Shown: positions 1,062 to 18,791 of the stretch, piece after piece
Numbering within the stretch: position 1 is the stretch's first letter
How the letters are laid out: every line of letters begins with the position of its first letter
Assembly: GCF_900079115.1 (NCBI RefSeq)
Contig: NZ_LT549890.1
Span: 1,950,001-1,982,000 of the forward strand
Source of the DNA: Saccharolobus solfataricus
GTDB taxonomy: Archaea; Thermoproteota; Thermoprotei_A; Sulfolobales; Sulfolobaceae
Direction of reading: 5' to 3'
DNA length: 32,000 nt
The notes under the pieces: generated by a model
What the model saw: only the letters and a program-made list of their open reading frames with translations
Told to the model about the DNA's origin: nothing
Databases searched by the model: none
Made by a program: the position numbers and the translations under genes

Positions 1062-1694
1062 ATGATTAACTTGATTAAACATGTAGATATAGTTGTAAGC
1101 CATGAAGATTGTTGGACTTCACACATGCCATTTACCGCATATACTATTAATTTAGAAGTTTATCCACATAAGAACTATTTAAGGAGTAGGATTCTTATCG
1201 ATTCAATGGAAAATAAGGTTATATCAAACTTAATGAAAACACACAGAAGCGTTATAAAGGTTATGAAGGTAGATAGGTTTAAGGGAGGAACTTATGTGGA
1301 TTTTTTAAATAAATACAAGGGATCAATAGCTGGGGTCCTCTACGATAAGGAAGTGTTGATTCTGGGTAATCTCATAGAAGGTAAAGACGAAAAATGGTCA
1401 TTTGTAACTTCCAGCAAAAATCTTCGAGAGATTCTTACTGAGATCGAAAGTTTAGGAAAGGTGAAAAGAGTGGAGACAACTGACTTTAACCCAATTCTCT
1501 ACCCTAATCTGACTGAATGGGAAAAGAAAGTGCTTACGGTATCCTATTCCTATGGTTATTTAGACTATCCCAGAAGAGCAACTGCCGATGAATTAGCTAA
1601 GCTATTAGGAATAAGTAAAGTAACGTTCCTCTATCATTTGAGAAATGCCCAAAGGAAGTTAATTGCGTTTTCCATAAAAAACATTTTAGCTTAG
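1062..1694 (+). CDS. HTH_10 (Bat-like) family transcriptional regulator
   Basis: 210 aa. The C-terminal LTEWEKKVLTVSYSYGYLDYPRRATADELAKLLGISKVTFLYHLRNAQRKL resembles the archaeal HTH_10 / bacterio-opsin-activator-type DNA-binding domain. Confidence 0.55.
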   Translation: MINLIKHVDIVVSHEDCWTSHMPFTAYTINLEVYPHKNYLRSRILIDSMENKVISNLMKTHRSVIKVMKVDRFKGGTYVDFLNKYKGSIAGVLYDKEVLILGNLIEGKDEKWSFVTSSKNLREILTEIESLGKVKRVETTDFNPILYPNLTEWEKKVLTVSYSYGYLDYPRRATADELAKLLGISKVTFLYHLRNAQRKLIAFSIKNILA

Positions 1695-3554
1695 GCTCTT
1701 CAACGCCTCCTTAAGTTCCTCCATTATCCTTATATCGTCCAATGTTGATACATCACCTGGATTCTCGTTAGCTAGGATAGCCTTTAGTAGCCTTCTCATT
1801 ATCTTCCCGCTTTTGGTTTTAGGCAGTCTCTTCACAAACACTACTTTATCAACTATGTAACCAGCGTTCCTACAATAGTTCTTAATGTCATTTCTGAGTG
1901 CGTCACCAACCTCAACCCCTTGTCTTGGGACTACAAACGCTATTATGTTACCGCCTTGACCTATTACGGCAGCTTCGGCCACGTTGGGATGAGTTACTAT
2001 TACACTTTCAACTTCAAGTGTTCCTATCCTCTCCCCTTCAGCTCTTATTACATCATCAGCTCTTCCCAGCACGAACAGATATCCATCCTCATCAACATAA
2101 CCGTAATCTCCAGTGTAGAAGTATCCTGGGAACCTAGACCAATACTTCTCCTTTATCTTCTCGTAATTGGGATCATTCCACATTTTAGCTAAGGCTGGGT
2201 TAAGCGGTTTTAACACTATATATCCCTTTTGCTTAGGAGGTAATGGTTTTCCCTCATCGTCAACAATTAAGAAATATGTTCCTCCTGGGAATTGTATACC
2301 AGCGGAACCTGCCTTAAAGGGAATTTCGCCGATTCCGTAAGGAGTTGCACCAACTGGCGATAAATGCTCTGTCATCCAGTACGCATCTGCTATCTTAACT
2401 TGAGGAAGATTCTGATTTAACCACATCCACGCTCCAACGTTTAAAGGTTCTCCTGTATTAAGAATCATTCTTAAGCTTGATGTATCTCCGCTCTTAACTG
2501 ACTCCTCTCCTAAACTCTTGAGAGTGTAAAGAGTTGTGGTAGAACTCCAAACTAGGCTTACATTATATCTCTCAATTACTCTCGAGAATAGATCCCTTTT
2601 ATAACCAACATATCCCTCAAAAAGCACACCAGGTATTCCCATTACTGGTATCGTGTATAAATTTGCCATTGGCCATACTGGCCAACCTAATTCTGAAACA
2701 GTCCACCAAACGTCATTCTCTGTTGGGTTAAATATTGCCTTAAAAGCCCAATTGAGTGCTATCACATACCCTCCATTACTATGGTATAATCCCTTAGGTC
2801 TTCCCGTAGTTCCAGACGTGTAATAAACTGTCGCTGGCTCGTTAGCCTCAACTTCCACTGGTTTAACGTAAACTTTCCCTTTAGGTTTCACACCATCATA
2901 CACAACATCCCTTTTCCCATTAACATTAAAATCTGAATATCCCCTCGGCACTGTCAAGACTTTCTGTATGGGTGTAGTATGAGATTCCAAAACTTTATCC
3001 ACAAAATCCTTAATTCTTATCTCATTTCCATTCCTAAACGTCTTTGAAGCAACAATCAATACTTTTGAACCGCAATCATTAAACCTATATGCCACTGTTT
3101 CCTCGCTCAAACCTACATAATGTATTATTAGAATTGCCCCCAGTCTGTGTGTTGCTAAGGAGAAGTATACAGCTTCTGGTATATTAGGCATTAGCATGGA
3201 TACCGTATCGCCTTTTTTCACGCCCAATTCACTTAAGACATAGGCTGCCTTGTTTACTTCTTGATAAAGATCTTGAAAGGATATTGACCTAAAACTATCT
3301 AATCTCTCATTGGTCCAATAAAATGCCACCTTATCTTTCTTATCTGGTAAATGCCTATCTATGGCATTATAGGATATATTAAGTGTTCCTCCGACGAACC
3401 ATTTCTCGTATGGTGGTTCTCCCTCAAGTATTTTCTCTGGTTGCCTAAACCAACTTACGTAATTAGCCTTATCCCGCCAGAAGGCTTCTGGATTTTCCAT
3501 GGAGAATTTTGCCAGTGCTTTAATCTGATCTAGAGAATATATTTTCCAACTCAT
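1686..3554 (-). CDS. AMP-forming acetyl/acyl-CoA synthetase
   Basis: 622 aa with the AMP-binding signature YTSGTTGRPKG, the GWPVWP core, and a C-terminal LPKTKSGKIMRRLLK typical of the ACS family. Its 3' end overlaps the convergent regulator gene by 9 nt. Confidence 0.85.
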   Translation of the reverse strand: MSWKIYSLDQIKALAKFSMENPEAFWRDKANYVSWFRQPEKILEGEPPYEKWFVGGTLNISYNAIDRHLPDKKDKVAFYWTNERLDSFRSISFQDLYQEVNKAAYVLSELGVKKGDTVSMLMPNIPEAVYFSLATHRLGAILIIHYVGLSEETVAYRFNDCGSKVLIVASKTFRNGNEIRIKDFVDKVLESHTTPIQKVLTVPRGYSDFNVNGKRDVVYDGVKPKGKVYVKPVEVEANEPATVYYTSGTTGRPKGLYHSNGGYVIALNWAFKAIFNPTENDVWWTVSELGWPVWPMANLYTIPVMGIPGVLFEGYVGYKRDLFSRVIERYNVSLVWSSTTTLYTLKSLGEESVKSGDTSSLRMILNTGEPLNVGAWMWLNQNLPQVKIADAYWMTEHLSPVGATPYGIGEIPFKAGSAGIQFPGGTYFLIVDDEGKPLPPKQKGYIVLKPLNPALAKMWNDPNYEKIKEKYWSRFPGYFYTGDYGYVDEDGYLFVLGRADDVIRAEGERIGTLEVESVIVTHPNVAEAAVIGQGGNIIAFVVPRQGVEVGDALRNDIKNYCRNAGYIVDKVVFVKRLPKTKSGKIMRRLLKAILANENPGDVSTLDDIRIMEELKEALKSLS

Positions 3555-3654: not shown

Positions 3655-4770
3655 ATGAGCGAAAAAGAGCTCTTTATACAATCATTAAGGGAGTTTCTAA
3701 ACAGAGATGTTGAGAAGATAGTGAATAAAATAGACAAAGAAGATTACTACCCCAGAGATTTAGTTAGAAAGCTTGGAGAGTTAGGCTTTCTAATCCCTTT
3801 AACTAGTGGTCTATCAAACTACGACATGATGATTATTTTAGAAGAGATTGCAAAGGTTAGCGGGTCTTTAGCATTAATTGCTGATGCTCAAGGAGAGTTA
3901 GCCGGTGAGATGATTAGATTGTATGCAAATGAAAGGCAAAAGAAGGAGTTTATGGAACCATTGAGTAAGGGAGAAATTATAGGTAGTTTTGCCTTAACTG
4001 AACCTTCAGGTGGAAGCGATATAGGTTCCATGAAGACTCTCGCTGAGAAAAGAAATGGATCGTGGATAATAAAGGGACATAAGATGTGGATAACTCAAGG
4101 GCTTTACGCTGACGTTTTCATCACAGTAGCGAAAACGGGTTCATCTAGACGTGATTTATCAGTTTTTATAGTGCCCAGAAGTAATTGCGTTGAGACTAGA
4201 AAAATAGAAGTCATGGGTAATAGGGGAACTGGGACCGCTGAGGTAATCTTTCATAATTGCGAAGTGTCAAACGATTACGTTGTTGGGGAGGTGAATAATG
4301 GGTGGAACATGGTCAACTCAGTATTAGAAATAGGTAGGCTTGCTATCTCAGGTATTGCAATAGGTTTGGCTGAGGCGGCTTTGGAAGAAGCTTTTAAGTG
4401 GGCTAAATCAAGATTTGCATTTGGGAATTCGATTTATGATTTTCAAGGGATAAGATGGTATTTCGCAGATGCCATAGCTAAACTTAACGCAGTTAAGTCA
4501 ATGGCTAAGGATGTCAGTAGTAAGTTCGATGAGAATTCAAAGGATAAGGGAGTTTACGTCTCAATGTTAAAGTTATTATCTGCAAATATTGCTAACGAAG
4601 TAATAGACATCTCCTTACAAGTATTCGGTGGTATGGGTTACGCTAAGGGAACTAACATAGAACGAATATATCGTGATGCTAGACTACTTAGGATAGGTGA
4701 GGGAACTGATGAAGTACAGAGGCACATTATAGCTAAATATATTGAACAGTATGGAATACCGTATATCTAG
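3655..4770 (+). CDS. Acyl-CoA dehydrogenase
   Basis: 371 aa. ALTEPSGGSDIGS, KMWITQG and the C-terminal RIGEGTDEVQRHIIA match ACAD family motifs. Confidence 0.85.
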   Translation: MSEKELFIQSLREFLNRDVEKIVNKIDKEDYYPRDLVRKLGELGFLIPLTSGLSNYDMMIILEEIAKVSGSLALIADAQGELAGEMIRLYANERQKKEFMEPLSKGEIIGSFALTEPSGGSDIGSMKTLAEKRNGSWIIKGHKMWITQGLYADVFITVAKTGSSRRDLSVFIVPRSNCVETRKIEVMGNRGTGTAEVIFHNCEVSNDYVVGEVNNGWNMVNSVLEIGRLAISGIAIGLAEAALEEAFKWAKSRFAFGNSIYDFQGIRWYFADAIAKLNAVKSMAKDVSSKFDENSKDKGVYVSMLKLLSANIANEVIDISLQVFGGMGYAKGTNIERIYRDARLLRIGEGTDEVQRHIIAKYIEQYGIPYI

Positions 4771-4832
4771 TTACTTTTGATCCTTTCTGACATTAGGCTA
4801 AAAAGTTTTAATAGGATGAGAAGAGAATATTT

Positions 4833-5978
4833 TTGGGGACTTTTTTGAATCGAATCGCAATAATAGGCTTAGGTTGGTACGGCTTCAAGCCTACGACTCA
4901 TGAGGTCTCGTTTAGGGAAATGGTTTTTGAGGCTGCATCGAGAGCATATAAAGATGCAGGGGGTATAAATCCTAGAAGCGATGTTGACTCCTTTATATCT
5001 TGCCAAGAGGATTTCTGGGAGGGAATATCAATAGCAGATGAATTCGCACCAGACCAAATGGGGGGTGCAATGAGACCCACAATGACTGTAGCTGGAGATT
5101 CTCTTCAAGGATTAGCCCATGCGGCAATGCATATCAATTCCGGTGTAGCTAACGTAGTGTCAATTGAAGCCCATTCTAAGGTAAGTGATATACTAACATT
5201 TAGTGACCTGGAGAAATTCGCAATGGATCCAATATACATCAGATCCATTAATCCACCAAATTTCCACTTTATTGCAGGGTTAGATGCTGTAAAGTTCATG
5301 CATAGAAAAGGGATAACAAGAGAAGATCTGGCATTAGTAGTGGAGAAAAATAAGAAAGCTGGACTCTCATCTCCTAGAGCTTCTTTTGCCAGTAATATAT
5401 CTGCTGTAGACGTGATGAAGAAAAATTATGTAGTTTACCCTCTTAGTGAATTAGATATTGCGCCTTTTGTGGATGGAGCAATAGTCATAGTAGTTGCTGA
5501 TGAGGAAGTCGCTAAAAAGCTTAAAAAAGATGATTATCTAGTAGTCAAGGGAATAGGATTCGCGACAGATTCTTCAAACTTAGAAACTGCAGAGCTAGGA
5601 AAGGCAAATTACATGAAGATAGCCTCTGATATGGCATATAAAATGGCTGGAGTTGAGACGCCTAGAAGGTATTTTGATGCCGTTTTCGTTGATGATAGAT
5701 ATAGTTACAAAGAATTACAGCACTTGGAGGGATTAAGAGTTTCTGAAGAACCATCAAAGGATTTAAGGGAAGGTAATTTCTCTCCTCAAGGAGAAGTTCC
5801 TGTAAATCCATTAGGGGGACATATGGCTAAAGGAGTTCCTTTAGAAGCTTCCGGTTTTTCATTATTGCTAGACGCGATAGAGTATATTAAGCAAGGGAAG
5901 GGTGAAAGAGCTGTAGTCGCGTCTTGGCGTGGAATTCCCACGCTTACTGGATCAGTCGTGGTGGTGGAAAAGCCATGA
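4833..5978 (+). CDS. Thiolase-fold protein (SCP-x/lipid-transfer type), apparently lacking the canonical catalytic Cys/His
   Basis: 381 aa with a TTG start per the ORF track. Overall thiolase architecture: N-terminal RIAIIGLG, central ...INSG helix, C-terminal NPLGGHMAKGVPLEASG. The nucleophile position reads VAGDS with no Cys, and GVP replaces GHP. Confidence 0.7.
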   Translation: MGTFLNRIAIIGLGWYGFKPTTHEVSFREMVFEAASRAYKDAGGINPRSDVDSFISCQEDFWEGISIADEFAPDQMGGAMRPTMTVAGDSLQGLAHAAMHINSGVANVVSIEAHSKVSDILTFSDLEKFAMDPIYIRSINPPNFHFIAGLDAVKFMHRKGITREDLALVVEKNKKAGLSSPRASFASNISAVDVMKKNYVVYPLSELDIAPFVDGAIVIVVADEEVAKKLKKDDYLVVKGIGFATDSSNLETAELGKANYMKIASDMAYKMAGVETPRRYFDAVFVDDRYSYKELQHLEGLRVSEEPSKDLREGNFSPQGEVPVNPLGGHMAKGVPLEASGFSLLLDAIEYIKQGKGERAVVASWRGIPTLTGSVVVVEKP

Positions 5979-7153
5979 AGGTAAATATTCATTTAAATAA
6001 AAGGGTTGCAATAATAGGAGCTGGCTTAACTCTATTTAGGAGAAGACTACTAGAAACTCCACAAGAAATAGCATGGGAGGCTGCAAGTAAGGCACTGGAC
6101 GAAGCTGGACTAGAGTTAAAGGATATCGACTGTGTCGTTATTGGAAGTGCACCAGATGCTTTTGATGGGGTTAACCTAAAGGGTGAATACTTATCACATG
6201 GTGCTGGAGGAATCAAGAAGCCAGTAAGTAGAGTTTATGTGGGTGGTGCTACTGGAGTTATGACTGCAATAACAGGCTGGTATCATGTCGCCAGTGGGTT
6301 GTGCCAGAAAGTATTGGCTGTAGCTGAGGAAAAGATGAGTCCAGCTAGACCTCATCCACAATCAATATTCAGATATATATGGGATCCAATTTTAGAAAAG
6401 CCCTTGAATCCTAATCTGATATGGATATTCGCAATGGAAATGCACAGATATATGGCAACTTATGGAATTAAAAAAGAGGAGATTGCACTAGTCTCTGTAA
6501 AGAACAAAAGGAATGCAATAAACAACCCATACGCACAACTAGGTTCAAATATAACAGTAGAAGACGTACTAAAGAGTGAAGTCTTAGTTTGGCCAGTTCA
6601 ACTCTTAGATGTTAGCCCAGTTAGTGATGGCGGGGCAGCGATTGTATTGGCCTCAGAAGACGTTGCAAGAAGGTACACTGATACACCGGTATGGGTTGAA
6701 GGTGTTGGATGGACCTTAGATAATACGGAATGGCCTGCCAGAGATTTAGCCTATGCTAGATATGTGGAATTCGCAGCTAGAATGGCTTATAAGATGGCTG
6801 GGATTGAGAGGCCAAATAAGGAAATAGATGTTGCTGAACCATATGATCCGTTTGATTACAAAGAACTACATCATTTAGAGGCATTACAATTAGCTAAAAG
6901 GGGAGAAGCTCCAAAATTATTAAAGGAGGGAGTATTCGACATTGATGGCGATATACCCAGTAGTCCTAGTGGAGGTTTACTGGGAGTGGGTAATCCTATT
7001 GCAGCTGCTGGCTTAATGAAGGTTATAAGTATATATTGGCAACTTAAGGGGATTGCTGGAAAAATGCAAGTTAAGAGACCAGTACATACTGGCGTAGCCC
7101 AAGCTTGGGGAGATTTAATGCAAGCGGGTACGGTTATAGTTTTACGTAATTGA
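5975..7153 (+). CDS. Thiolase-fold protein (SCP-x/lipid-transfer type), apparently lacking the canonical catalytic Cys/His
   Basis: I place the start at the ATG at 5975 (MKVNIHLNKRVAIIGAGL...), which forms an ATGA overlap with the upstream stop. The ORF-track start at 5924 would overlap the previous gene by 55 nt. The nucleophile position reads VGGATG with no Cys. GNP replaces GHP, and AEPYDPF replaces the ElHDcF motif. Confidence 0.7.
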   Translation: MKVNIHLNKRVAIIGAGLTLFRRRLLETPQEIAWEAASKALDEAGLELKDIDCVVIGSAPDAFDGVNLKGEYLSHGAGGIKKPVSRVYVGGATGVMTAITGWYHVASGLCQKVLAVAEEKMSPARPHPQSIFRYIWDPILEKPLNPNLIWIFAMEMHRYMATYGIKKEEIALVSVKNKRNAINNPYAQLGSNITVEDVLKSEVLVWPVQLLDVSPVSDGGAAIVLASEDVARRYTDTPVWVEGVGWTLDNTEWPARDLAYARYVEFAARMAYKMAGIERPNKEIDVAEPYDPFDYKELHHLEALQLAKRGEAPKLLKEGVFDIDGDIPSSPSGGLLGVGNPIAAAGLMKVISIYWQLKGIAGKMQVKRPVHTGVAQAWGDLMQAGTVIVLRN

Positions 7154-7163
7154 GGGATATGAG

Positions 7164-7661
7164 ATGGTAACTCCTCTTAAAGAAGAAGAATTAAGTAAAC
7201 ATTACATAATATCATATAAGCCAAATGCTAAGTACGCATACACTGCGGGACAAGCTCAAAGCAAATATCTACTTGGACTTAAGGAAGGGAAAATTTATGG
7301 AAGAAAATGTAATAAATGCGGTAGAATCCACGTACCACCAAAAATGTATTGTGAGGAATGCTTTAGACCTACTGACGAGTGGGTTGAGGTAAAAGATGAA
7401 GGGATTGTAATGACTGCAGTTGCCAGCTTCATAAGTTGGACTAGGGCTAAACTGGAAGAGCCAGAGATAGTAGGGGTAATAAGACTATTACCTTCTAATG
7501 ATAGAGATTTCGTATACCCAGGAATATTCCATAGAATATGTGCAAGTTATGAACAAGTGAAGAGTATGGAAATCATAGGGAAGAGAGTTAAGGCAGTATG
7601 GAGGCCAAAGGAGGAAAGGAAAGGAAGTATTGAAGATATTCAATGCTTTAAGGTGATCTAA
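7164..7661 (+). CDS. DUF35 family protein (rubredoxin-like zinc ribbon plus OB fold)
   Basis: 165 aa. CNKCGRIHVPPKMYCEEC is a four-Cys zinc ribbon followed by an OB-like C-terminal half. This is the typical thiolase-associated DUF35 architecture. Confidence 0.75.
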   Translation: MVTPLKEEELSKHYIISYKPNAKYAYTAGQAQSKYLLGLKEGKIYGRKCNKCGRIHVPPKMYCEECFRPTDEWVEVKDEGIVMTAVASFISWTRAKLEEPEIVGVIRLLPSNDRDFVYPGIFHRICASYEQVKSMEIIGKRVKAVWRPKEERKGSIEDIQCFKVI

Positions 7662-8096
7662 ATGTCTTGGGAAAAGAGTGGAAAAGAAGGAAGCCTATTG
7701 AGATGGTATGACGTAATGGAAGCTGAGAGATACGAGTATACAGTAGGTCCAGCGGGTGAACAATTCTTTAACGGATTGAAACAAAATAAGATTATAGGAA
7801 GTAAGTGTAGTAAGTGTGGAAGAATATTCGTCCCCGCTAGATCCTATTGTGAACACTGTTTTGTCAAGATAGAGAATTACGTGGAAATAAATAAGGATGA
7901 AGCTTACGTGGATTCGTATACAATAATTTACAATGATGATGAAGGTAACAAATTAGCACAGCCAGTGTATATTGCCCTAATTAGATTTCCTAATATTGAA
8001 GGAGGATTACTATGTTACGCTGAAGGAAATGTTAAAGTAGGAGCAAAAGCTAAGATTTTGAGCTTCCAGTGGCCTTTACGAGTCAAGGTTGACTAA
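7662..8096 (+). CDS. DUF35 family protein (second paralogue)
   Basis: 144 aa. CSKCGRIFVPARSYCEHC zinc ribbon. The ATG directly abuts the TAA of the preceding gene (taaatg). Confidence 0.75.
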   Translation: MSWEKSGKEGSLLRWYDVMEAERYEYTVGPAGEQFFNGLKQNKIIGSKCSKCGRIFVPARSYCEHCFVKIENYVEINKDEAYVDSYTIIYNDDEGNKLAQPVYIALIRFPNIEGGLLCYAEGNVKVGAKAKILSFQWPLRVKVD

Positions 8097-8997
8097 TTTT
8101 TTCGAAGATATTCTCACCCTTATATGTATATACTGAATTCACATCCAACTCAACGTTGCAAGAAACCATTCCATATAACGTGCTACCAGATAAGAATATG
8201 CAGAAATCCTCTACTTTACGCAAAAGCTTCACTGAGATATTTGGGCTTTCCCTTAAATTCAATATTTCCTTAGCGGTAGCGAAACTTATCAAAACGTTTA
8301 TAATTCTTCCCTCTTTGTCCTTTACCTTACTAATAGTAAAAACTTCGCCCATAAGTTTCTTATTTCTTATTTTATCTTCCTCATCTAATAACAATTTTAA
8401 CGCATTACTAAGTCTAAAACTATCAGAGGACTTCTTTTCATTATCGCTTAATCCATTAATTTTTAACTCATATATATTATTACCCAGAATTAAATTAAAC
8501 ACCTCGTCCCTCATTATAAGAAACGCCTCATCGGCTTCACCTTGTATGGAAGCTAGATAATTGATCAAAATTTTTTTCATATCGCTGATAGTTTCAATAC
8601 TCTTCCCCAATTGAACATCCTTAACCTCTTTTTTCTTATTAAGTTCTAATAGATAATTCTCCAATTCTTCTAATTCTTTCCATGCTAAATCTATGTTATA
8701 TTCCGTTACTATTCTACTAAGTTTATCCATTAAAAGATAATATAACTCTGGAGTGGTAGGTGTTGATTGTAACCATAAATATGCGTTACTTAGACCTTCT
8801 TTTATTTTCTTAGTTTTGTCATTACCAAATTTTCTCCTCGCGATACCTATGGATAGATCCACTGCAATATCACTAGATACTTTCAAAAGTCTATCTAAAT
8901 TATTGGCGTCGATATCTATGTTCATTAACTCGCTTATAATTACTAATTTAAGAAAATTATTTAAAAATTTCTCTAACATTTCATGAGTTTGAGCCAT
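8083..8997 (-). CDS. Hypothetical protein, helical / coiled-coil rich
   Basis: 304-aa ORF with no motif I recognise. It has a charged heptad-like stretch, WKELEELENYLLELNKKKEVKD. It is the longest ORF on either strand here. Its 3' end overlaps the convergent DUF35 gene by 14 nt. Confidence 0.5.
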   Translation of the reverse strand: MAQTHEMLEKFLNNFLKLVIISELMNIDIDANNLDRLLKVSSDIAVDLSIGIARRKFGNDKTKKIKEGLSNAYLWLQSTPTTPELYYLLMDKLSRIVTEYNIDLAWKELEELENYLLELNKKKEVKDVQLGKSIETISDMKKILINYLASIQGEADEAFLIMRDEVFNLILGNNIYELKINGLSDNEKKSSDSFRLSNALKLLLDEEDKIRNKKLMGEVFTISKVKDKEGRIINVLISFATAKEILNLRESPNISVKLLRKVEDFCIFLSGSTLYGMVSCNVELDVNSVYTYKGENIFEKISQP

Positions 8998-9140
8998 ACA
9001 ATACAGTTTGCGTTGATAGATTAAAAAGATTAAACTACTTATGTACTAAAATAAACTTTACTTCTGAAGTTTAATCGAATTGTTAAGATCTTAAACTTTA
9101 GAAAGCAACACTTATTAACATATAAACTATAATTATAAAT

Positions 9141-10979
9141 GTGATTGAACTTTCTACGACCAAAAGGCTAATCTTGGGAAATGAGGCAATAGCTTTTGGT
9201 GCGTTAAGTGCTGGAGTATCAGTAGCTGCAGGGTATCCAGGCACACCATCTACTGAAATAATAGAAACATTAATGAAATTTGGAAAAATATATGCTGAAT
9301 GGAGTACTAATGAGAAAGTGGCATTTGAAACAGCCTATGGGGCAGCTATCAATGGAGCTTTTGCCCTAACCACAATGAAGCATGTAGGGTTAAACGTAGC
9401 TGCCGACCCATTAATAAGCTCATCATATACTGGAGTTGAAGGAGCGTTAGTTATAGTTTCTGCTGACGATCCTTCCATGTGGTCGTCGCAAAACGAGCAA
9501 GACAACAGATACTACGGTTTACATGCGTTAATCCCGGTTGTAGAGCCGTATGATCCGCAATCCGCTCACGACTTAACCATAGAGGCCTTTAAGTTAAGTA
9601 ACAAAGTTAAACACCCAGTAATTTTCAGATCTACTACTAGAATAGGTCACATTAGAGGACCAGTAGAACTTAAACCTCCATCTCGACCAGTCATGGGCAA
9701 AGTTATTAAAAACCCTAAACGTTATGTTTTAGTACCAGAAAACGCTAGAAGGGATAGAGTTGAACAGTTAAAGAGATGGGAGAGAATTGAAGAGGAGGTA
9801 GAGGGTTTAAACGAGCTAATTGATAACGATAGTGAAAATCTAATAATTGCCTCGGGTATTTCATTCGGTTATGTAATCGATGCCATAAAAGAGTTAGAAA
9901 TTAAGGCAAATATATTGAGATTAACCACTCCCGTCCCTATACCTAAAAGGTTAATTCTTAAGGCTGTGAGTAACTCTAAGAGGGTTTTAATAGTCGAGGA
10001 GGGTGAGCCCATAGTAGAATATCAGGTAAAGGATCTCCTATATGATCAAGGAGTAAGAGTAGAACTACATGGAAAGGATTTGGTAAGTAGAGTTGGAGAG
10101 ATGACATTAGACAAGGTATATTATGCCTTTAGCAAATTCTTTGGATTGGACATAGTGACGGATTACTTAGAAGTTCCCCAAGATATACCACCAAGACCTC
10201 CAGCTCTGTGTCCAGGGTGTCCACATAGAAGTTCGTTCATAGATTTAAAGAAGGCGATTACAATGGCTTCCTTCAAGCCTAATGAAACCTTCATTTCTGG
10301 CGATATTGGGTGTTATACATTAGGATTATTGCCACCCTTTGACGCTCAAGACTCCTCTACAGATATGGGATCTAGTATAGGAATTGCCAACGGTGTTTAT
10401 AGGGCTACTGGGAACATACCGATAGCAGTTATTGGAGATTCCACATTCTTTCACAGCGGTATTTCAGCCCTTGCAAATGCCGTATATAATCAAACTCCAA
10501 TGCTTGTTCTCGTCTTAGATAATAGGTCGACTGCGATGACGGGACAACAGCCAAGCCCATCAAAGGAAATCGATATAGGAGAGGTTGCTAAGGGTTTAGG
10601 AGTAAAATATGTAAGGTATGTTGATCCTTTTGATGTTAACTCCTCAATAAGAGAGTTATCCAATGCGTTAAAGTGGGTTAAAGATAATAAGCAACCAGCA
10701 GTTGTTATAGCTAAAAGAGCTTGCGCGTTACTAGTCATGGATAACGTTGAGGAGAGCAATTTACCAAAGGCCATAGTCGATCTAGAGAAATGTACTGGTT
10801 GTAGCATATGCTATGACTACTTTACGTGTCCAGCAATTATTCCTAGAAATGATAAGAAAGCTGAAATAGATAATTACACTTGTATAGGCTGTGGAGCTTG
10901 TGTACCAATTTGCCCATTTAAGGCAATATCCTTAAAGGGTGACAAGCCAGAAAAATGGGATGAATTATGGCTTGGGTAA
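9141..10979 (+). CDS. iorA: Indolepyruvate:ferredoxin oxidoreductase, alpha subunit
   Basis: 612 aa with a GTG start. N-terminal [17 protein letters not shown]-binding GDIGCYT...GDSTFFHSG, and two C-terminal 4Fe-4S motifs, [14 protein letters not shown] and [12 protein letters not shown]. Confidence 0.85.
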
Positions 10980-11551
10980 ATATTTTAATAGCTGGTGTTG
11001 GAGGCCAAGGTATAATAACTGCTGGTAAGATAATAGCTGAGGCTGGAAATTATTCAAATACTAAGGTCTTAATAGCTGAAACTCATGGCTTAGCCCAGAG
11101 AGGTGGAGGGGTTAACGTTCATGTGAGAATAGGTGACGTTAACTCTCCATTAATACCGTTAGGAAAGGCTGATTACCTAGTTGGTTTAGAGGCTATCGAG
11201 GTTTTAAGAAATTTAAATTATGCTTCTAGAAAGCATACTACAATCGTTGTAAATAACTATGTTGTGAGGCCCGTCTTACCTAAAGTTAAGTTACTTACTT
11301 TGCAGGAGATTTTCGATAAACTAAAAGGTTGTAAAGTCTATGTAATTGATGCTAATCAAATAGCCATAAAGGCTGGGAATATTAAGGCAGCAAATGCTGC
11401 AATGCTAGGGTTTTTATACTCACTGGGGGCATTTGAAGGTTTGATAAACGAGGAATCTTTCATTAAAGCATTGAAGTACGAGAGTAATATAAAAGCGTTT
11501 AAAATTGCCCAAGCTATAAAAATTAATGGGATAGATATTAATGGTATTTAA
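10967..11551 (+). CDS. iorB: Indolepyruvate:ferredoxin oxidoreductase, beta subunit
   Basis: 194 aa. N-terminal [17 protein letters not shown]...[11 protein letters not shown] is typical of the 2-oxoacid:Fd oxidoreductase gamma/IorB domain. Overlaps iorA by 13 nt. Confidence 0.8.
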
Positions 11552-13367
11552 TCCAGATAAGGAATGGATAGAGAACAGTAACGTATATAAGTTCATGATT
11601 AAAAGGAACCTTAATAGATTAGAAGACTTCGTAAGGTATACATATGAGAATCCTGAATTTTGGGACCAGTTTGTAAAGCTTATTGGAGTGGAATTTAAAG
11701 AACCTTATGCCAAGGTTTTGGATCTGAGCAGAGGAAAACAATGGCCACAATGGTTCATAGGAGGGAAGTTAAACATTGGAGATCAATTACGTGATAGTTC
11801 TGATGTGTTCATTAAGTGGATGGATGAAGACCTCAACACCAGAACTGTAACTTATTCTCAAATACTAAATGAGAGCAAGTCTATTGCAAGTTGGTTAAAG
11901 AAGATAGGTTTGAAGAAGGGAGATAGGGTCGCTATTTACATGCCAATGATCCCGGAAATAGTATCAGTAATGCTGGGAGCAATAAGGGTAGGGACGATAA
12001 TCGTACCCTTATTTTCCGGATTTGGTCCAGAGCCCATAAGGGTTAGAGTGGAGGATAGTGAGGCGAAAGTAATCTTCACAGTTGATAAGAGCATTAGAAG
12101 AGGAAAAGAAGTCGACATGTTAAAAAATCTAGAAGGACTAAACGATAATATAACTAAAGTAGTATTGAATAGAGGAGGCACTAAGGGTGATTTTTATGAG
12201 TATAAGGATGTCATAAAAACTGCTGGAGATTATGTAGAAGATACCAGTACTGAAGACCCAATGATGATAATTTACACTTCTGGAACTACTGGAAAACCCA
12301 AAGGATGCGTTCATACTCACGATGGGTTTCCAATAAAAGCTTCAGCTGACATTTACTTCCAATTCGATTTGAAAAATGGAGAGACGTTAATGTGGGTTAC
12401 TGACATGGGGTGGATGATGGGACCCTGGATGGTATTTGGATCACTCTTACTAAACGCTAAAATGGGAATGATTGAAGGATATACAAGTGGGGAAGTCCTA
12501 CAGAAATTCGTTGAAGATATGAAAGTTGATGTTTTAGGGGTCTCAGCTAGTCTAGTTAGGGCACTGAGAAGTCAAGGCGAAGTTAAGCTAAACGTTAGGT
12601 TAACTGGAAACACTGGAGAACCAATTGATTCGGAAAGCTGGTATTGGTTATTCAACGCCAGTGGAAAGAACCCCATAATAAACTACTCTGGAGGTACTGA
12701 AATCTCTGGAGGTATTTTGGGGAATTACGTTATAAAGAAGATAAAGCCATCTTCATTTAATGGACCTTCTCCGGGAATTAACGCCTCAGTATTTAATGAG
12801 GAAGGAAAAGACGCCCCACCAAATGTTGAAGGAGAGTTAGTCGTATTAAGTGTTTGGCCAGGTATGACTAGAGGATTTTGGAGAAACCCGGAAAGGTATA
12901 TAGAGACCTACTGGTCAGTGTGGAAAGATGTATGGGTTCATGGAGATTTGGCTTATAGAGACGAAGAAGGGTATTTTTACATCGTAGGTAGGAGTGATGA
13001 TACGATAAAGGTTGCTGGGAAGAGAGTAGGTCCGGCTGAAATCGAAAGCGTATTAAATTCATTCCCAAACGTAGTGGAATCAGCATGTATAGGAATACCT
13101 GATCCGATGAAGGGGGAGAAAATAGTCTGTTTTGTAGTCTCTAAGGTTAGTGGGATTGAAAATCAATTAATAGAATACACAGAGGATAAACTGGGTAAGG
13201 CATTTGCACCATCTGAAATAAAGATTGTTAAGGAGCTACCTAAGACTAGAAATGCTAAAATAATGAGGAGATTGATAAGAGCCATATATTTAAATAAACC
13301 CTTAGGAGATATATCCTCACTGGAAAATCCGTCAGCTTTGGAGGAAATTAAGAAGGCCATCAGTTAG
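11541..13367 (+). CDS. AMP-forming acyl-CoA synthetase (ACS-like)
   Basis: 608 aa. [11 protein letters not shown], the C-terminal [15 protein letters not shown], and N-terminal ACS-like WFIGGKLNI. Overlaps iorB by 11 nt. Confidence 0.8.
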
Positions 13368-17644: not shown

Positions 17645-18791
17645 TAGCACTTTACGGTTTTCTCCTCCTCTTGAACAGTTTTTTGATCCCACCCGCCTCA
17701 CGGTAAATACTTTTTATCAATCTGGCCAACCTTTTGGCCCCGAGCATCAGACCCGTGGAGTACTTGAAGTATTGAACAACGAGGAGGGAGAGAGCCTTCA
17801 AGGCCACGAAGCCTGAGTTCCTAACCCAGGTCAAGAAGGACCCACCCTCGAGTCCCAAGGCCTTGAGCTCCCTGATCAAGACCTCTATGTCCCAACGGTT
17901 CTCCCAGGTCGTTATGATATCTTCAGCCGTGTCGTTAAGGTCGGTGGAGAAGAAATACCTCCTCCCGTAACCCTTATAGTCATCTATAACAAGTAACTTT
18001 ATGGGAGTCCCCAAGTACTCTACCAGGTACTCCCCTTGGGGGAACTCGCTAACGGGCACGGATCTGCCACCCTCGACGACTCGCGCGCTGGACTTGAGTT
18101 CCCCCACAGTATTCCCTTGGAGAGTCCTCGAGTTCACGTACCATGAGTCGAAGACCCTAGCTTTTACATTCAAACCTGAGAGGGAGGAGAGAAACTCCAA
18201 GAGGGCATCTATCTTGGTCTTGAACTTCACCTCCTCACCCCTACGCTTGAGCTCCTCTTCCACCTTTCGGGGTATGTAGGCAATTATGTGGATCACGTAG
18301 ATCTGGTTGTTCACCAGATCCTTGACGCCAATCACAAGGAGTTGGATCGCGGGTTCGAACCTCTTGTGCGCCCTACAGTAGAAGATCTGCGCCCCGTTTC
18401 TGGAGACCGGCATGGCCCTAGCGTAGAGCTTGTGGTCGTGGGTGTCGTCCACTATGAGAAGGACAGGATGATCCCCGACTAACTTCTTCACGACCTCGAT
18501 TAGTTTGGCTTGAGCTGCCTTGTCCAAGTTATTCAGTACGGTCTCGTAGTCCATCTCGGCCTCTTGAGCTATCTCGGTAGCATTTCTTCCCACAACCGCC
18601 CCCAAGAGTAGCCTCTTGGCAACGTCCTTCCTCGTTCCAGTCATGGATAGTATGACCTCGTTAACTGCCTTTTCCAATGCCTTATAGTACTCCTCCCTCG
18701 TCAATTCTTTGGTCATACCAAAATTAAAGGTTCTAATTTTAAAAAGTTTTTATGGGCCTCTTGAACTGCCAGGATTTTCCGATAAATGCTA
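17645..18791 (-). mobile_element. Insertion sequence of about 1147 bp, ISC1217-like (family name from memory, unverified)
   Basis: The imperfect terminal inverted repeats are TAGCACTTTACGG (17645-17657) and the reverse complement of the right end, TAGCATTTATCGG, matching 10/13. There is a single 354-aa transposase ORF. Flanking direct repeats are 6-9 bp. G+C jumps sharply: by hand count 36/60 at 18001-18060 versus 15/60 at 19701-19760. Confidence 0.8.
17652..18716 (-). CDS. IS transposase (DDE-type presumed)
   Basis: 354-aa ORF filling the element. It has an N-terminal HTH-like segment (RNATEIAQEAEMDYETVLNNL). LLIVDDTHDHK and SWYVNS resemble DDE transposase blocks. Confidence 0.75.
   Translation of the reverse strand: MTKELTREEYYKALEKAVNEVILSMTGTRKDVAKRLLLGAVVGRNATEIAQEAEMDYETVLNNLDKAAQAKLIEVVKKLVGDHPVLLIVDDTHDHKLYARAMPVSRNGAQIFYCRAHKRFEPAIQLLVIGVKDLVNNQIYVIHIIAYIPRKVEEELKRRGEEVKFKTKIDALLEFLSSLSGLNVKARVFDSWYVNSRTLQGNTVGELKSSARVVEGGRSVPVSEFPQGEYLVEYLGTPIKLLVIDDYKGYGRRYFFSTDLNDTAEDIITTWENRWDIEVLIRELKALGLEGGSFLTWVRNSGFVALKALSLLVVQYFKYSTGLMLGAKRLARLIKSIYREAGGIKKLFKRRRKP

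Follow-up and report, generated by a model that had tools for sequence, protein, structure and literature searches.

A conserved archaeal operon of two thiolase-fold proteins without the thiolase catalytic residues and two DUF35 proteins: a candidate heteromeric, non-thiolytic C-C lyase

The steroid side-chain aldolase Ltp2-ChsH2 (TcLtp2, Protein Data Bank (PDB) entry 6OK1) has an SCP2-thiolase fold without the nucleophilic cysteine, carries a glycine in its place and needs a DUF35 partner, and the bile-acid aldolase Sal-Shy (CtSal, 9MYR) is built as alpha-beta-beta-alpha, with DUF35 domains on its flanks. Rolfe et al. (2025, PMC12329534) reported that a tyrosine replaces the histidine of the thiolase HDCF motif in Ltp2 (YDHF), in Sal (YDCY) and in the trypanosomal protein SLP (YDCF), and that mutagenesis proved this tyrosine to be the catalytic base (Tyr294 in Ltp2, Tyr302 in Sal). 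In the same work the substrate hydroxyl is held by the backbone amide of Gly89 in Sal, Tyr344 serves as the acid in Ltp2 and Cys304 does so in Sal, and the Sal authors suggest that the SLPs may be aldolases (PMC12329534). A heteromeric aldol-lyase, Ltp3-Ltp4, has been proposed from genetic evidence to remove the C24 branch of plant sterols (Wilbrink 2012, cited in PMC6593523 and PMC6678751). We compared with these systems a locus of the archaeon Saccharolobus solfataricus, in which four adjacent genes encode two thiolase-fold proteins, A and B, and two DUF35 proteins, D1 and D2. The locus lies in a stretch of 32,000 nucleotides (contig NZ_LT549890.1, positions 1,950,001 to 1,982,000, forward strand), which is called the window in this text and whose own numbering is used for all coordinates.

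The residues of A and B, the conservation of the four-gene unit, the separate D1 and D2 groups and a fusion protein all support the proposal of an initial annotation of this DNA that the locus may encode a hetero-oligomeric, non-thiolytic C-C lyase or condensing enzyme. The reading that we favour, at a probability of about 0.55, is that the four proteins form a complex in which B would act as a C-C lyase of the retro-aldolase type and A would be its non-catalytic partner. Our confidence in a heteromeric, probably non-thiolytic assembly is considerably higher than our confidence in the aldolase chemistry.

D2 is identical to PDB 3IRB chain A (100% over 144 aa), which is SSO2064, and because of this identity the locus was taken to be SSO2061-2064, the other three genes being assigned by adjacency. 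The paper on the 3IRB structure (PMC2954200) treated DUF35/thiolase neighbourhoods generally, and the active sites of the two upstream proteins were not examined there. Proteomic work on S. solfataricus has already found SSO2061, listed there as an acetyl-CoA acetyltransferase. No study of this operon was found in the literature on its locus tags, on archaeal or Sulfolobus DUF35 and thiolase proteins, or on archaeal thiolase-like proteins without the cysteine.

Active sites of the two thiolase-fold proteins

Families were assigned by the curated cut-offs of Pfam and NCBIfam, residue registers were taken from HMMER and MAFFT alignments, and AlphaFold2 (AF2) monomer models were compared with solved structures by Foldseek. 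A genome scan placed relatives of A in at least 398 genome loci, the best 80 of which were analysed for layout, neighbours and the alignment columns of A; the columns of B were counted over 69 orthologs and some positions of A over 120 homologues. Both proteins matched Pfam Thiolase_C_1/Thiolase_N and are of the SCP2-type thiolase fold. On their NCBIfam models, A scored 694.5 bits (NF004722/PRK06066, cut-off 516) and B 845.7 bits (NF004721/PRK06065, cut-off 455). Template modelling (TM) scores of the two models against archaeal and SCP2 thiolases (6ESQ, 7YVY, 6HSP) were 0.80-0.89; the model of A, with a predicted local distance difference test (pLDDT) score of 88, reached 0.89 with 6ESQ, and its loop 61-70 was predicted to be disordered in the monomer.

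The alignment of B by HMMER with 7YVY and 6ESQ agreed with the MAFFT alignment in placing Gly91 at the thiolase cysteine, Tyr290 (in YDPF) at the HDCF histidine and Asn340 at the GHP histidine. In A the HDCF-histidine column is Asp287 (VDDRY) and the GHP-histidine column is Val335. These assignments agree with those made by eye in the initial annotation, which had read Gly at the nucleophile of B, GVP in A and GNP in B at the GHP motif, and VDDRY in A and PYDPF in B at the HDCF motif. It had also placed an alanine at the nucleophile of A. The absence of a cysteine there stands, and the residue itself is uncertain: some MAFFT runs gave Ala87, HMMER and a larger MAFFT run gave Ser90, and the register is ambiguous because A has a deletion of 3-4 residues at this point. 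The helix begins at residue 90 in the AF2 model of A. The alignments revealed no hidden catalytic cysteine or histidine at the canonical positions of A or B across the orthologs examined.

The loss of the thiolase residues is not a chance event in one genome, for it is family-wide in both A and B. Neither candidate nucleophile column of A held a cysteine in any of the 80 orthologs; the column varies among Ala, Ser, Thr, Pro and Gly. The HDCF-histidine column is Asp or Glu throughout these orthologs, and the GHP-histidine column is variable (Val, Asn, Tyr and others). The sole cysteine of A, Cys57, lies in a highly conserved loop and is present in 68 of the 80 orthologs. Public annotation calls such proteins acetyl-CoA C-acetyltransferase or acetoacetyl-CoA beta-ketothiolase, which, with the conservation of Cys57, would suit thiolases or acetyl-CoA acetyltransferases that use a non-canonical nucleophile (Cys57 of A, Cys53 or Cys110 of B, perhaps across the dimer interface). 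This explanation is very improbable, however: no cysteine column is invariant in either family (Cys53 and Cys110 of B are kept in 57 and 53 of the 69 orthologs, respectively), both activating histidines are also gone, A and B lie outside the clade of canonical Cys/His/His proteins in the neighbour-joining (NJ) tree described below, and NCBI names both families merely 'thiolase domain-containing protein'.

The two proteins differ in what has been conserved. Gly91, Thr93 and Gly94 of B were each found in 69/69 orthologs, as were Asp291, Pro292 and Phe293, and Asn340 was found in 65/65. The invariant blocks RVxVGGxTG, EEKMS..PHPQ, EPYDPFDYKELHH/GNPIAA and WGDLMQ occupy all four classical catalytic loops, and His127, His299/His300 and several Asp/Glu residues are invariant as well. 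Over 56 complete loci, from which all four proteins were taken, the median identity to the window proteins was 72% for B, 51% for D1, 49% for A and 39% for D2, and B was 72-75% identical between Sulfolobales and Thermoproteales. From its sequence, B looks like a strongly constrained, retooled enzyme. At residue 67 of B (about 6173-6175), in an otherwise near-invariant loop (DGVH.kGEy), the window has an Asn where 66 of the 69 orthologs have His, a lineage-specific change.

A has retained a different set of residues. E59, D60, G64, I67, E70, F71, D89, E112, H114, K116 and S118 are invariant in the 80 orthologs, W62, D69 and P73 are near-invariant, E338 is kept in 79/80 and R366 in 99% of the 120 homologues. 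A is probably a diverged, non-catalytic partner in which the old active site is no longer selected, because its canonical positions vary and a conserved aldolase-like site is present only in B.

Another explanation is that A and B are both pseudoenzymes and that the assembly is a non-catalytic scaffold, an acyl-CoA carrier or a sensor, like DUF35 in the fatty-acid-synthase assembly of Sulfolobus acidocaldarius. All of the canonical catalytic residues are gone from both proteins, DUF35 proteins are known scaffolds, inactive thiolase-fold subunits are known in PhlABC and MucABC, and the context outside the four genes is variable. We consider this explanation quite unlikely. A decayed site would drift, as that of A does, whereas B keeps its 72% median identity across orders together with invariant polar residues in its catalytic loops, including the tyrosine that is the base in Ltp2 and Sal; the known heteromeric cases, moreover, keep one catalytic subunit.

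The sequences of 6OK1 and 9MYR, mostly recovered from HMMER alignments, were then aligned with A and B. Gly89, Tyr302 and Gln352 of Sal aligned with Gly91, Tyr290 and Asn340 of B, and Tyr294 of Ltp2 (Y294DHF) aligned with the same Tyr290, the nucleophile position being a glycine in Ltp2 as in B. The model of B superposed on Ltp2 with Foldseek TM scores of 0.77-0.79, and A matched none of these aldolase residues. B did not fall into the Ltp2 family as such: it scored 129 bits on the model PRK07855 (cut-off 469), on which an Ltp2-like plasmid protein scored 401 bits. Judged from these alignments, B is a third active-site variant, having the two elements common to both proven aldolases without their lineage-specific acids.

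The absence from B of the acid residues of both characterised aldolases could also mean that the retooled site performs acyl-CoA chemistry other than aldol cleavage, such as decarboxylation of the malonyl- or 3-oxoacid type, of which Cys-to-Gln ketosynthases are an example, isomerisation, hydration, or a CoA-independent acyl transfer like that of PhlABC. The only activity known for the trypanosomal TbSLP, which has the same Tyr-for-His replacement (YDCF), is a very slow malonyl-CoA decarboxylase (PMC12329534). B also has the invariant His127, His299/His300 and Asp/Glu residues, and among the companions of the operon is a short-chain acyl-CoA synthetase paralogue. We nevertheless regard such chemistry as unlikely: the proven roles of the Gly/Tyr pair in the thiolase fold are all retro-aldol, the Sal authors themselves point to aldolase activity for the SLPs (PMC12329534), and for acyl transfer in particular, acylases of the PhlC and MucB type keep a nucleophilic cysteine that B does not have.

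The four-gene unit and its DUF35 proteins

The packing of the genes was as the initial annotation had described it. A and B overlap by ATGA at 5975-5978, 10 nt (7154-7163) separate B from D1, and the stop codon TAA of D1 (7659-7661) directly abuts the ATG of D2 at 7662, within 7659-7664. All four genes are on one strand, almost without intergenic space, and sequences resembling Shine-Dalgarno motifs (GGTG, GAGG or GGTGA) were found at 5960-5967, 7152-7156 and 7652-7656, 6-15 nt 5' of the starts of B, D1 and D2. This layout fits a single A-B-D1-D2 transcript, possibly leaderless, with the AT-rich box at 4800-4813 as its putative promoter. Pfam bore out the composition of two SCP-x-type thiolase-fold proteins and two DUF35 proteins, in the order A-B-D1-D2 and not in the alternation of thiolase and DUF35 genes that the title of the initial annotation might suggest.

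In a survey of this 2+2 arrangement, most of the 80 loci had the order A-B-D1-D2. It was seen in Sulfolobales, Desulfurococcales, Acidilobaceae, Thermocladium, Geoarchaeota, Bathyarchaeia, Thor- and Baldr-archaeota, and metagenome-assembled genomes of Thermoplasmata or Methanomassiliicoccales. Wherever the locus was long enough to judge, A and B lay near each other, nearly always in the order A then B; B was on the opposite strand, about 1 kb from A, in two Thermoproteales loci. One locus with this layout (L073, SOIH01000269.1) is labelled as an Anaerolineales bacterium. Its gene spacing and scores are near-identical to those of the Thorarchaeota loci L075 and L067, B scoring 574-580 bits in all three, which would fit a mis-binned archaeal contig better than a bacterial copy.

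A protein of 731 aa (P0243), encoded on a bacterial contig beside a PBP1 gene, is a fusion of B, D1 and D2 with the motifs GGGTG, EPYDPFDYKALHH, GVGNP and WGDLMQ, and an A-like gene precedes it with 2 nt between them. This fusion is Rosetta-stone evidence, from gene structure, that B and both DUF35 modules work together. An apparent A-B fusion (P0180) was set aside: its contig was not identified, and it may result from an error in gene calling.

D1 matched Pfam zf-ChsH2 at 39.9 bits and OB_ChsH2_C at 19.4 bits, the latter under the cut-off of 27.1, and it aligned with 3IRB at E = 1.8e-16; both domains of D2 were above the Pfam cut-off. D1 and D2 of the window each have a CxxC...CxxC motif. The two are not interchangeable copies: D1 and D2 formed separate orthologous groups, the nearest neighbour being in the same positional class for 115/115 sequences. 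The four-cysteine zinc ribbon was present in 58/59 D1 orthologs and in 26/56 D2 orthologs, though it is present in SSO2064. In every solved complex, the DUF35 protein is bound to a thiolase-fold partner.

The other 30 of the 56 D2 orthologs (L008, L013, L016, L022, L025, L029, L035-L046 and others) are without two of the four ribbon cysteines and read 'KC.dg.vYVPPkTfCPD'. The bacterial B-D1-D2 fusion shows the same degeneration in its D2 module, as does a double-DUF35 protein of Tsukamurella in its first module. The DUF35 partners of such pairs are often annotated as 'DNA-binding protein' or 'nucleic-acid-binding protein' (the D1 orthologs P0394, P0402 and P0404, and homologues of Rv3521); one paper considers that an Rv3521 homologue might bind DNA, and another DUF35 protein of S. 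solfataricus, Sso2509 (Trf), has been described as a translation recovery factor.

Neighbouring genes

The features of the operon and its surroundings are collected in Table 1.

Table 1. Features of the window around the A-B-D1-D2 operon
Feature	Coordinates	Strand	Remarks
HTH_10-domain transcription regulator	1062-1694	+	adjoins ACS1
ACS1, ACS-like acyl-CoA synthetase	1686-3554	-	divergent from ACAD; Sulfolobaceae-specific neighbour; Pfam/NCBIfam
Acyl-CoA dehydrogenase (ACAD)	3655-4770	+	directly upstream of A; all three Pfam ACAD domains
TATA-like AT-rich box AAAAAGTTTTAATA	4800-4813	+	about 26 nt 5' of the A start; read from the sequence
A (SSO2061-like by adjacency)	4833-5978	+	TTG start; 381 aa; SCP2-type thiolase fold without Cys/His/His
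B (SSO2062-like by adjacency)	5975-7153	+	ATG start; 392 aa; thiolase fold; Gly91 / Tyr290-Asp-Pro-Phe / Asn340
D1 (SSO2063-like by adjacency)	7164-7661	+	165 aa; DUF35 zinc-ribbon/OB-fold
D2 = SSO2064	7662-8096	+	144 aa; DUF35; solved structure PDB 3IRB
Open reading frame (ORF) of 304 aa	8083-8997	-	overlaps the last 14 nt of D2; between D2 and IorA
IorA/IorB, indolepyruvate:ferredoxin oxidoreductase	9141-11551	+	between D2 and ACS2; TIGR03336 IOR_alpha 656 bits and Pfam POR
ACS2, AMP-forming short-chain acyl-CoA synthetase paralogue	11541-13367	+	commonest accessory gene in other genomes
ISC1217-family archaeal transposase	17652-18716	-	Pfam DDE_Tnp_2 604 bits; insertion sequence about 9.5 kb 3' of the operon

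Beyond the four genes, the neighbourhood differs from locus to locus. Clustering of the neighbours showed only ACS-like genes (25/80 loci) and ACAD (17/80) to recur. Genes of the ACS2 type were present in 23/80 loci, directly after D2 in seven loci of the Sulfolobaceae type and, in Desulfurococcales and Acidilobaceae, upstream of A in divergent orientation; in the window, the minus-strand ORF and IorAB separate ACS2 from D2. ACS2 itself reached no NCBIfam cut-off, its best partial matches being models of acetate-, propionate- and acetoacetate-CoA ligases. ACS1 was present in L001, L004, L006, L007 and S. acidocaldarius, where the order is ACS1(-), ACAD, A, B, D1, D2, IorA, IorB. IorAB was confined to Sulfolobaceae and lies upstream of ACS1 in Acidianus copahuensis.

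The initial annotation had the adjacent synthetase and dehydrogenase supply the acyl-CoA substrates. The two are neighbours only in some lineages, and the synthetase that accompanies the operon most often is ACS2. The context points to the metabolism of short acyl-CoAs, without naming a substrate. In several Vulcanisaeta loci (among L015, L019, L020 and L027), hydantoinase/oxoprolinase genes (Hydant_A_N and Hydantoinase_A) follow A-B at a distance of 0.2-4 kb, in L019 after an inserted resolvase/TnpB element; they were rejected as a clue to the substrate, as they occur in only some of these loci and at variable distance. A leucine-to-acetone route or an aryl-propionyl-CoA route can be imagined and is not claimed. 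The fatty-acid regulon (saci_1103-1126) was also set aside: the ortholog of S. acidocaldarius SUSAZ lies at 1.90-1.92 of 2.06 Mb in a different neighbourhood and, judged by neighbouring genes and not by locus tags, appears to be outside it.

The 304-aa ORF had no Pfam or NCBIfam match. The GC content is 0.345 over 8001-10000, lower there than around it. The ORF looks like a local insertion or not a real gene, because IorA directly follows D2 in S. acidocaldarius (L087). An HTH_10 neighbour was also found in the locus of a Saccharolobus metagenome-assembled genome (L001) and a regulator of the IclR/TrmB type takes that place in S. acidocaldarius (L087); the HTH_10 protein of the window is a possible local regulator of the cluster.

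The proposed assembly and its closest known counterparts

Bacterial modules were sought by tblastn against plasmids. Those of Rhodococcus qingshengii and Simplicispira suum consist of a small A-like protein of about 304 aa, a large B-like protein of 392-399 aa and a DUF35 protein, and adjacent small/large pairs were found in records of Streptomyces and Nonomuraea. The large subunits read RVHTGGATG, Y(A/D)P(F/Y) and xNP at the three active-site positions. In the Simplicispira cluster an Ltp2-like gene (YDHF, the protein with 401 bits on PRK07855) is followed by an OB-fold gene. This cluster (L082:6698-8328, on a 97-kb plasmid) thus holds an Ltp4-/Ltp3-like/DUF35 module and an Ltp2-like gene with its own OB-fold gene, together with an MBL-hydrolase, an SDR and a further thiolase-family gene, and it looks like a catabolic island for steroids or branched side chains. 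A plasmid match in M. branderi (H28), taken up as a candidate Ltp3/Ltp4, is a different OB-fold/ketosynthase-like pair and was rejected.

A Tsukamurella locus was ordered AMP-ligase, crotonase, a 309-aa protein with two DUF35 OB modules, small thiolase-like and large thiolase-like, which mirrors fadD19, echA19 ... Rv3521, ltp4, ltp3 of Mycobacterium tuberculosis, where Rv3521 is still called a hypothetical protein. The small protein scored 593 bits on NF005924/PRK07937 and the large one 734 bits on NF006180/PRK08313. Gene order and family matches together lead us to infer that these are the ltp4 and ltp3 orthologs. Like A-B-D1-D2, this type of locus has two different Cys-less thiolase-fold genes in tandem beside two DUF35 modules, with an acyl-CoA ligase nearby as in the window, and the small Tsukamurella subunit shares the deletion of 3-4 residues at the nucleophile helix of A. 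The signature of the large subunit (Gly, Y-x-P-F, x-N-P) was found in B (GGATG/YDPF/GNP), in Tt_big (AGSVG/YVPF/SNP) and in Rq_big (GGATG/YAPF/ANP). Judged by its genes, the archaeal operon is a domain-for-domain counterpart of the Ltp3/Ltp4/Rv3521 module. The two differ in gene order (DUF35, small, large), in the fusion of the two DUF35 modules in a single protein, in the small subunit (about 355 aa and keeping His/Asn in the Ltp4 type, 381 aa in A) and in substrate, since archaea of this kind are not expected to meet sterols; the identity to A and B is 21-37%.

B has 5751 relatives at E <= 1e-5, the best 120 of which are 71-95% identical. A HMMER scan covered 1.84 billion cluster representatives, and the 109 full-length proteins closest to B were placed in an NJ tree with 30 bootstrap replicates. 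They comprised 27 canonical Cys/His/His thiolases, about 30 proteins of the B type (Gly/Tyr-like/Asn) and 37 of the A type, a class defined by an Asp or Glu just before the nucleophile position. The canonical thiolases and the A-type proteins each formed a clean clade.

From the residues, their conservation, the gene unit, the fusion and the shared signature we infer the following assembly. The four genes would specify one complex in which A and B pair through the usual thiolase-fold dimer interface and each carries its own DUF35 subunit. The resulting pseudo-symmetric D-A-B-D would be a heteromeric version of the alpha-beta-beta-alpha aldolases Sal-Shy and Ltp2-ChsH2. B would work without an acyl-enzyme intermediate because it has no nucleophile. 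The general base, acting on the beta-hydroxyl of a 3-hydroxyacyl-CoA, would be Tyr290, with the backbone of Gly91 holding that hydroxyl. The enolate of the acyl-CoA would be stabilised by Asn340 together with backbone amides; candidates for the acid are the invariant His127 and His299/His300. The reaction would be a reversible, cofactor-independent retro-aldol cleavage yielding acetyl- or propionyl-CoA and an aldehyde or ketone. The invariant acidic loop of A (59-73) and its charged residues may shape or close the site of B or bind a DUF35 subunit.

Several observations weigh against B being an aldolase within such a complex. The essential Cys304 of Sal (YDCY) and the oxyanion-hole His296 of Ltp2 (YDHF) both correspond to Pro292 of B, so that a motif of the Sal type was not found. 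The oxyanion-hole Gln161 of Sal corresponds to Leu148 (a first assignment to Glu155 of B was dropped after direct alignment), and the column of Ltp2 Tyr344, the second catalytic tyrosine and general acid, is Ala343 in B and Glu in A (its placement at the GHP-histidine column, by a spacing of 50 residues after the tyrosine, was dropped likewise). Tyr290 itself is kept in 65 of the 69 orthologs and is His in the other four, and the AF2 model of B (pLDDT 75.5) has low confidence at the catalytic loops. The match of Tyr and Gly could be convergent or could serve another chemistry, and A, with its many invariant charged residues, may have a second or different active site. On the Ltp3-Ltp4 side, B scored 264.5 bits on PRK08313 (cut-off 514) and A 72.3 bits on PRK07937 (cut-off 419), B joined the other Gly/Tyr/Asn proteins in about half of the 30 NJ bootstraps, although never the thiolases, and the precedent is a genetic one only. 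Finally, the loci of Vulcanisaeta and Thermoproteaceae have A-B among housekeeping genes, without adjacent DUF35 genes; when Thermoproteales D1 homologues were sought elsewhere, none of the 96 word-sharing candidates scored was a named Vulcanisaeta or Pyrobaculum match.

A broader version of the aldolase reading, which we put forward tentatively and at somewhat less than even odds, is that A-B-D1-D2 is a thiolase-fold aldolase of four subunits, old and widespread in archaea and sporadic in bacteria, whose active site is of a third type (Gly/Tyr-x-Pro-Phe/Asn-Pro). It would make or break C-C bonds of small acyl-CoAs, in a reaction so far unrecognised, within central metabolism or a metabolism derived from amino acids. 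It might, for example, cleave 3-hydroxyacyl-CoAs that are not oxidisable (tertiary or aryl-substituted ones), with the accompanying ACS paralogue dealing with the products.

These proteins matter beyond the locus itself, as proteins of the A and B type are publicly labelled acetyl-CoA acetyltransferase or beta-ketothiolase despite their missing thiolase residues. A recent survey of archaeal 'ketothiolase/DUF35 pairs' did not distinguish Cys-less members, and A-B-DUF35 loci are likely to have been counted among the pairs taken as indicators of archaeal fatty-acid synthesis. If the aldolase reading is true, part of the pairs so counted are not ketothiolases, and thiolase-fold aldolases (Ltp2 2019, Sal 2025) would extend from bacterial steroid catabolism to archaea, with a heteromeric class defined by two dedicated DUF35 subunits. 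It would also give function and context to SSO2064, a structural-genomics structure of 2010, and throw light on the Ltp3/Ltp4/Rv3521 module of the M. tuberculosis cholesterol regulon. S. acidocaldarius has the same operon and is genetically tractable, so the question is directly testable there.

Two further groups of DUF35-containing complexes can be compared with the proposed D-A-B-D. In the archaeal thiolase-DUF35 complexes (the 6ESQ fold family, to which the models of A and B gave TM scores of 0.85-0.89), the DUF35 gene adjoins the thiolase-fold gene and its product mediates complex formation; unlike A and B, these proteins are true thiolases in which CxS, HDxF and GHx are retained, and each complex has one DUF35 type. 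The acyltransferases PhlABC and MucABC (5M3K, 9VBO) combine two different thiolase-fold proteins, one of them catalytically dead, with DUF35. Unlike B, their active subunits PhlC and MucB keep the nucleophilic cysteine and GHx; the partner is HMGS/FabH-like and not SCP2-like, a single DUF35 type is present and the reaction is a CoA-independent Friedel-Crafts acylation. The two proven aldolases are homodimers, unlike the A-B pair: Ltp2 has one DUF35 type, as a domain of the hydratase ChsH2, and the DUF35 of Sal, with a Cys3His zinc site, is part of a fusion with a MaoC hydratase. DUF35-dependent thiolase-fold aldolases, including the proposed heteromeric Ltp3-Ltp4, are thus already known, and the novelty lies in an archaeal version, widespread and encoded by four genes, whose two DUF35 subunits are separate and whose site reads Gly / Y-x-P-F / N-P.

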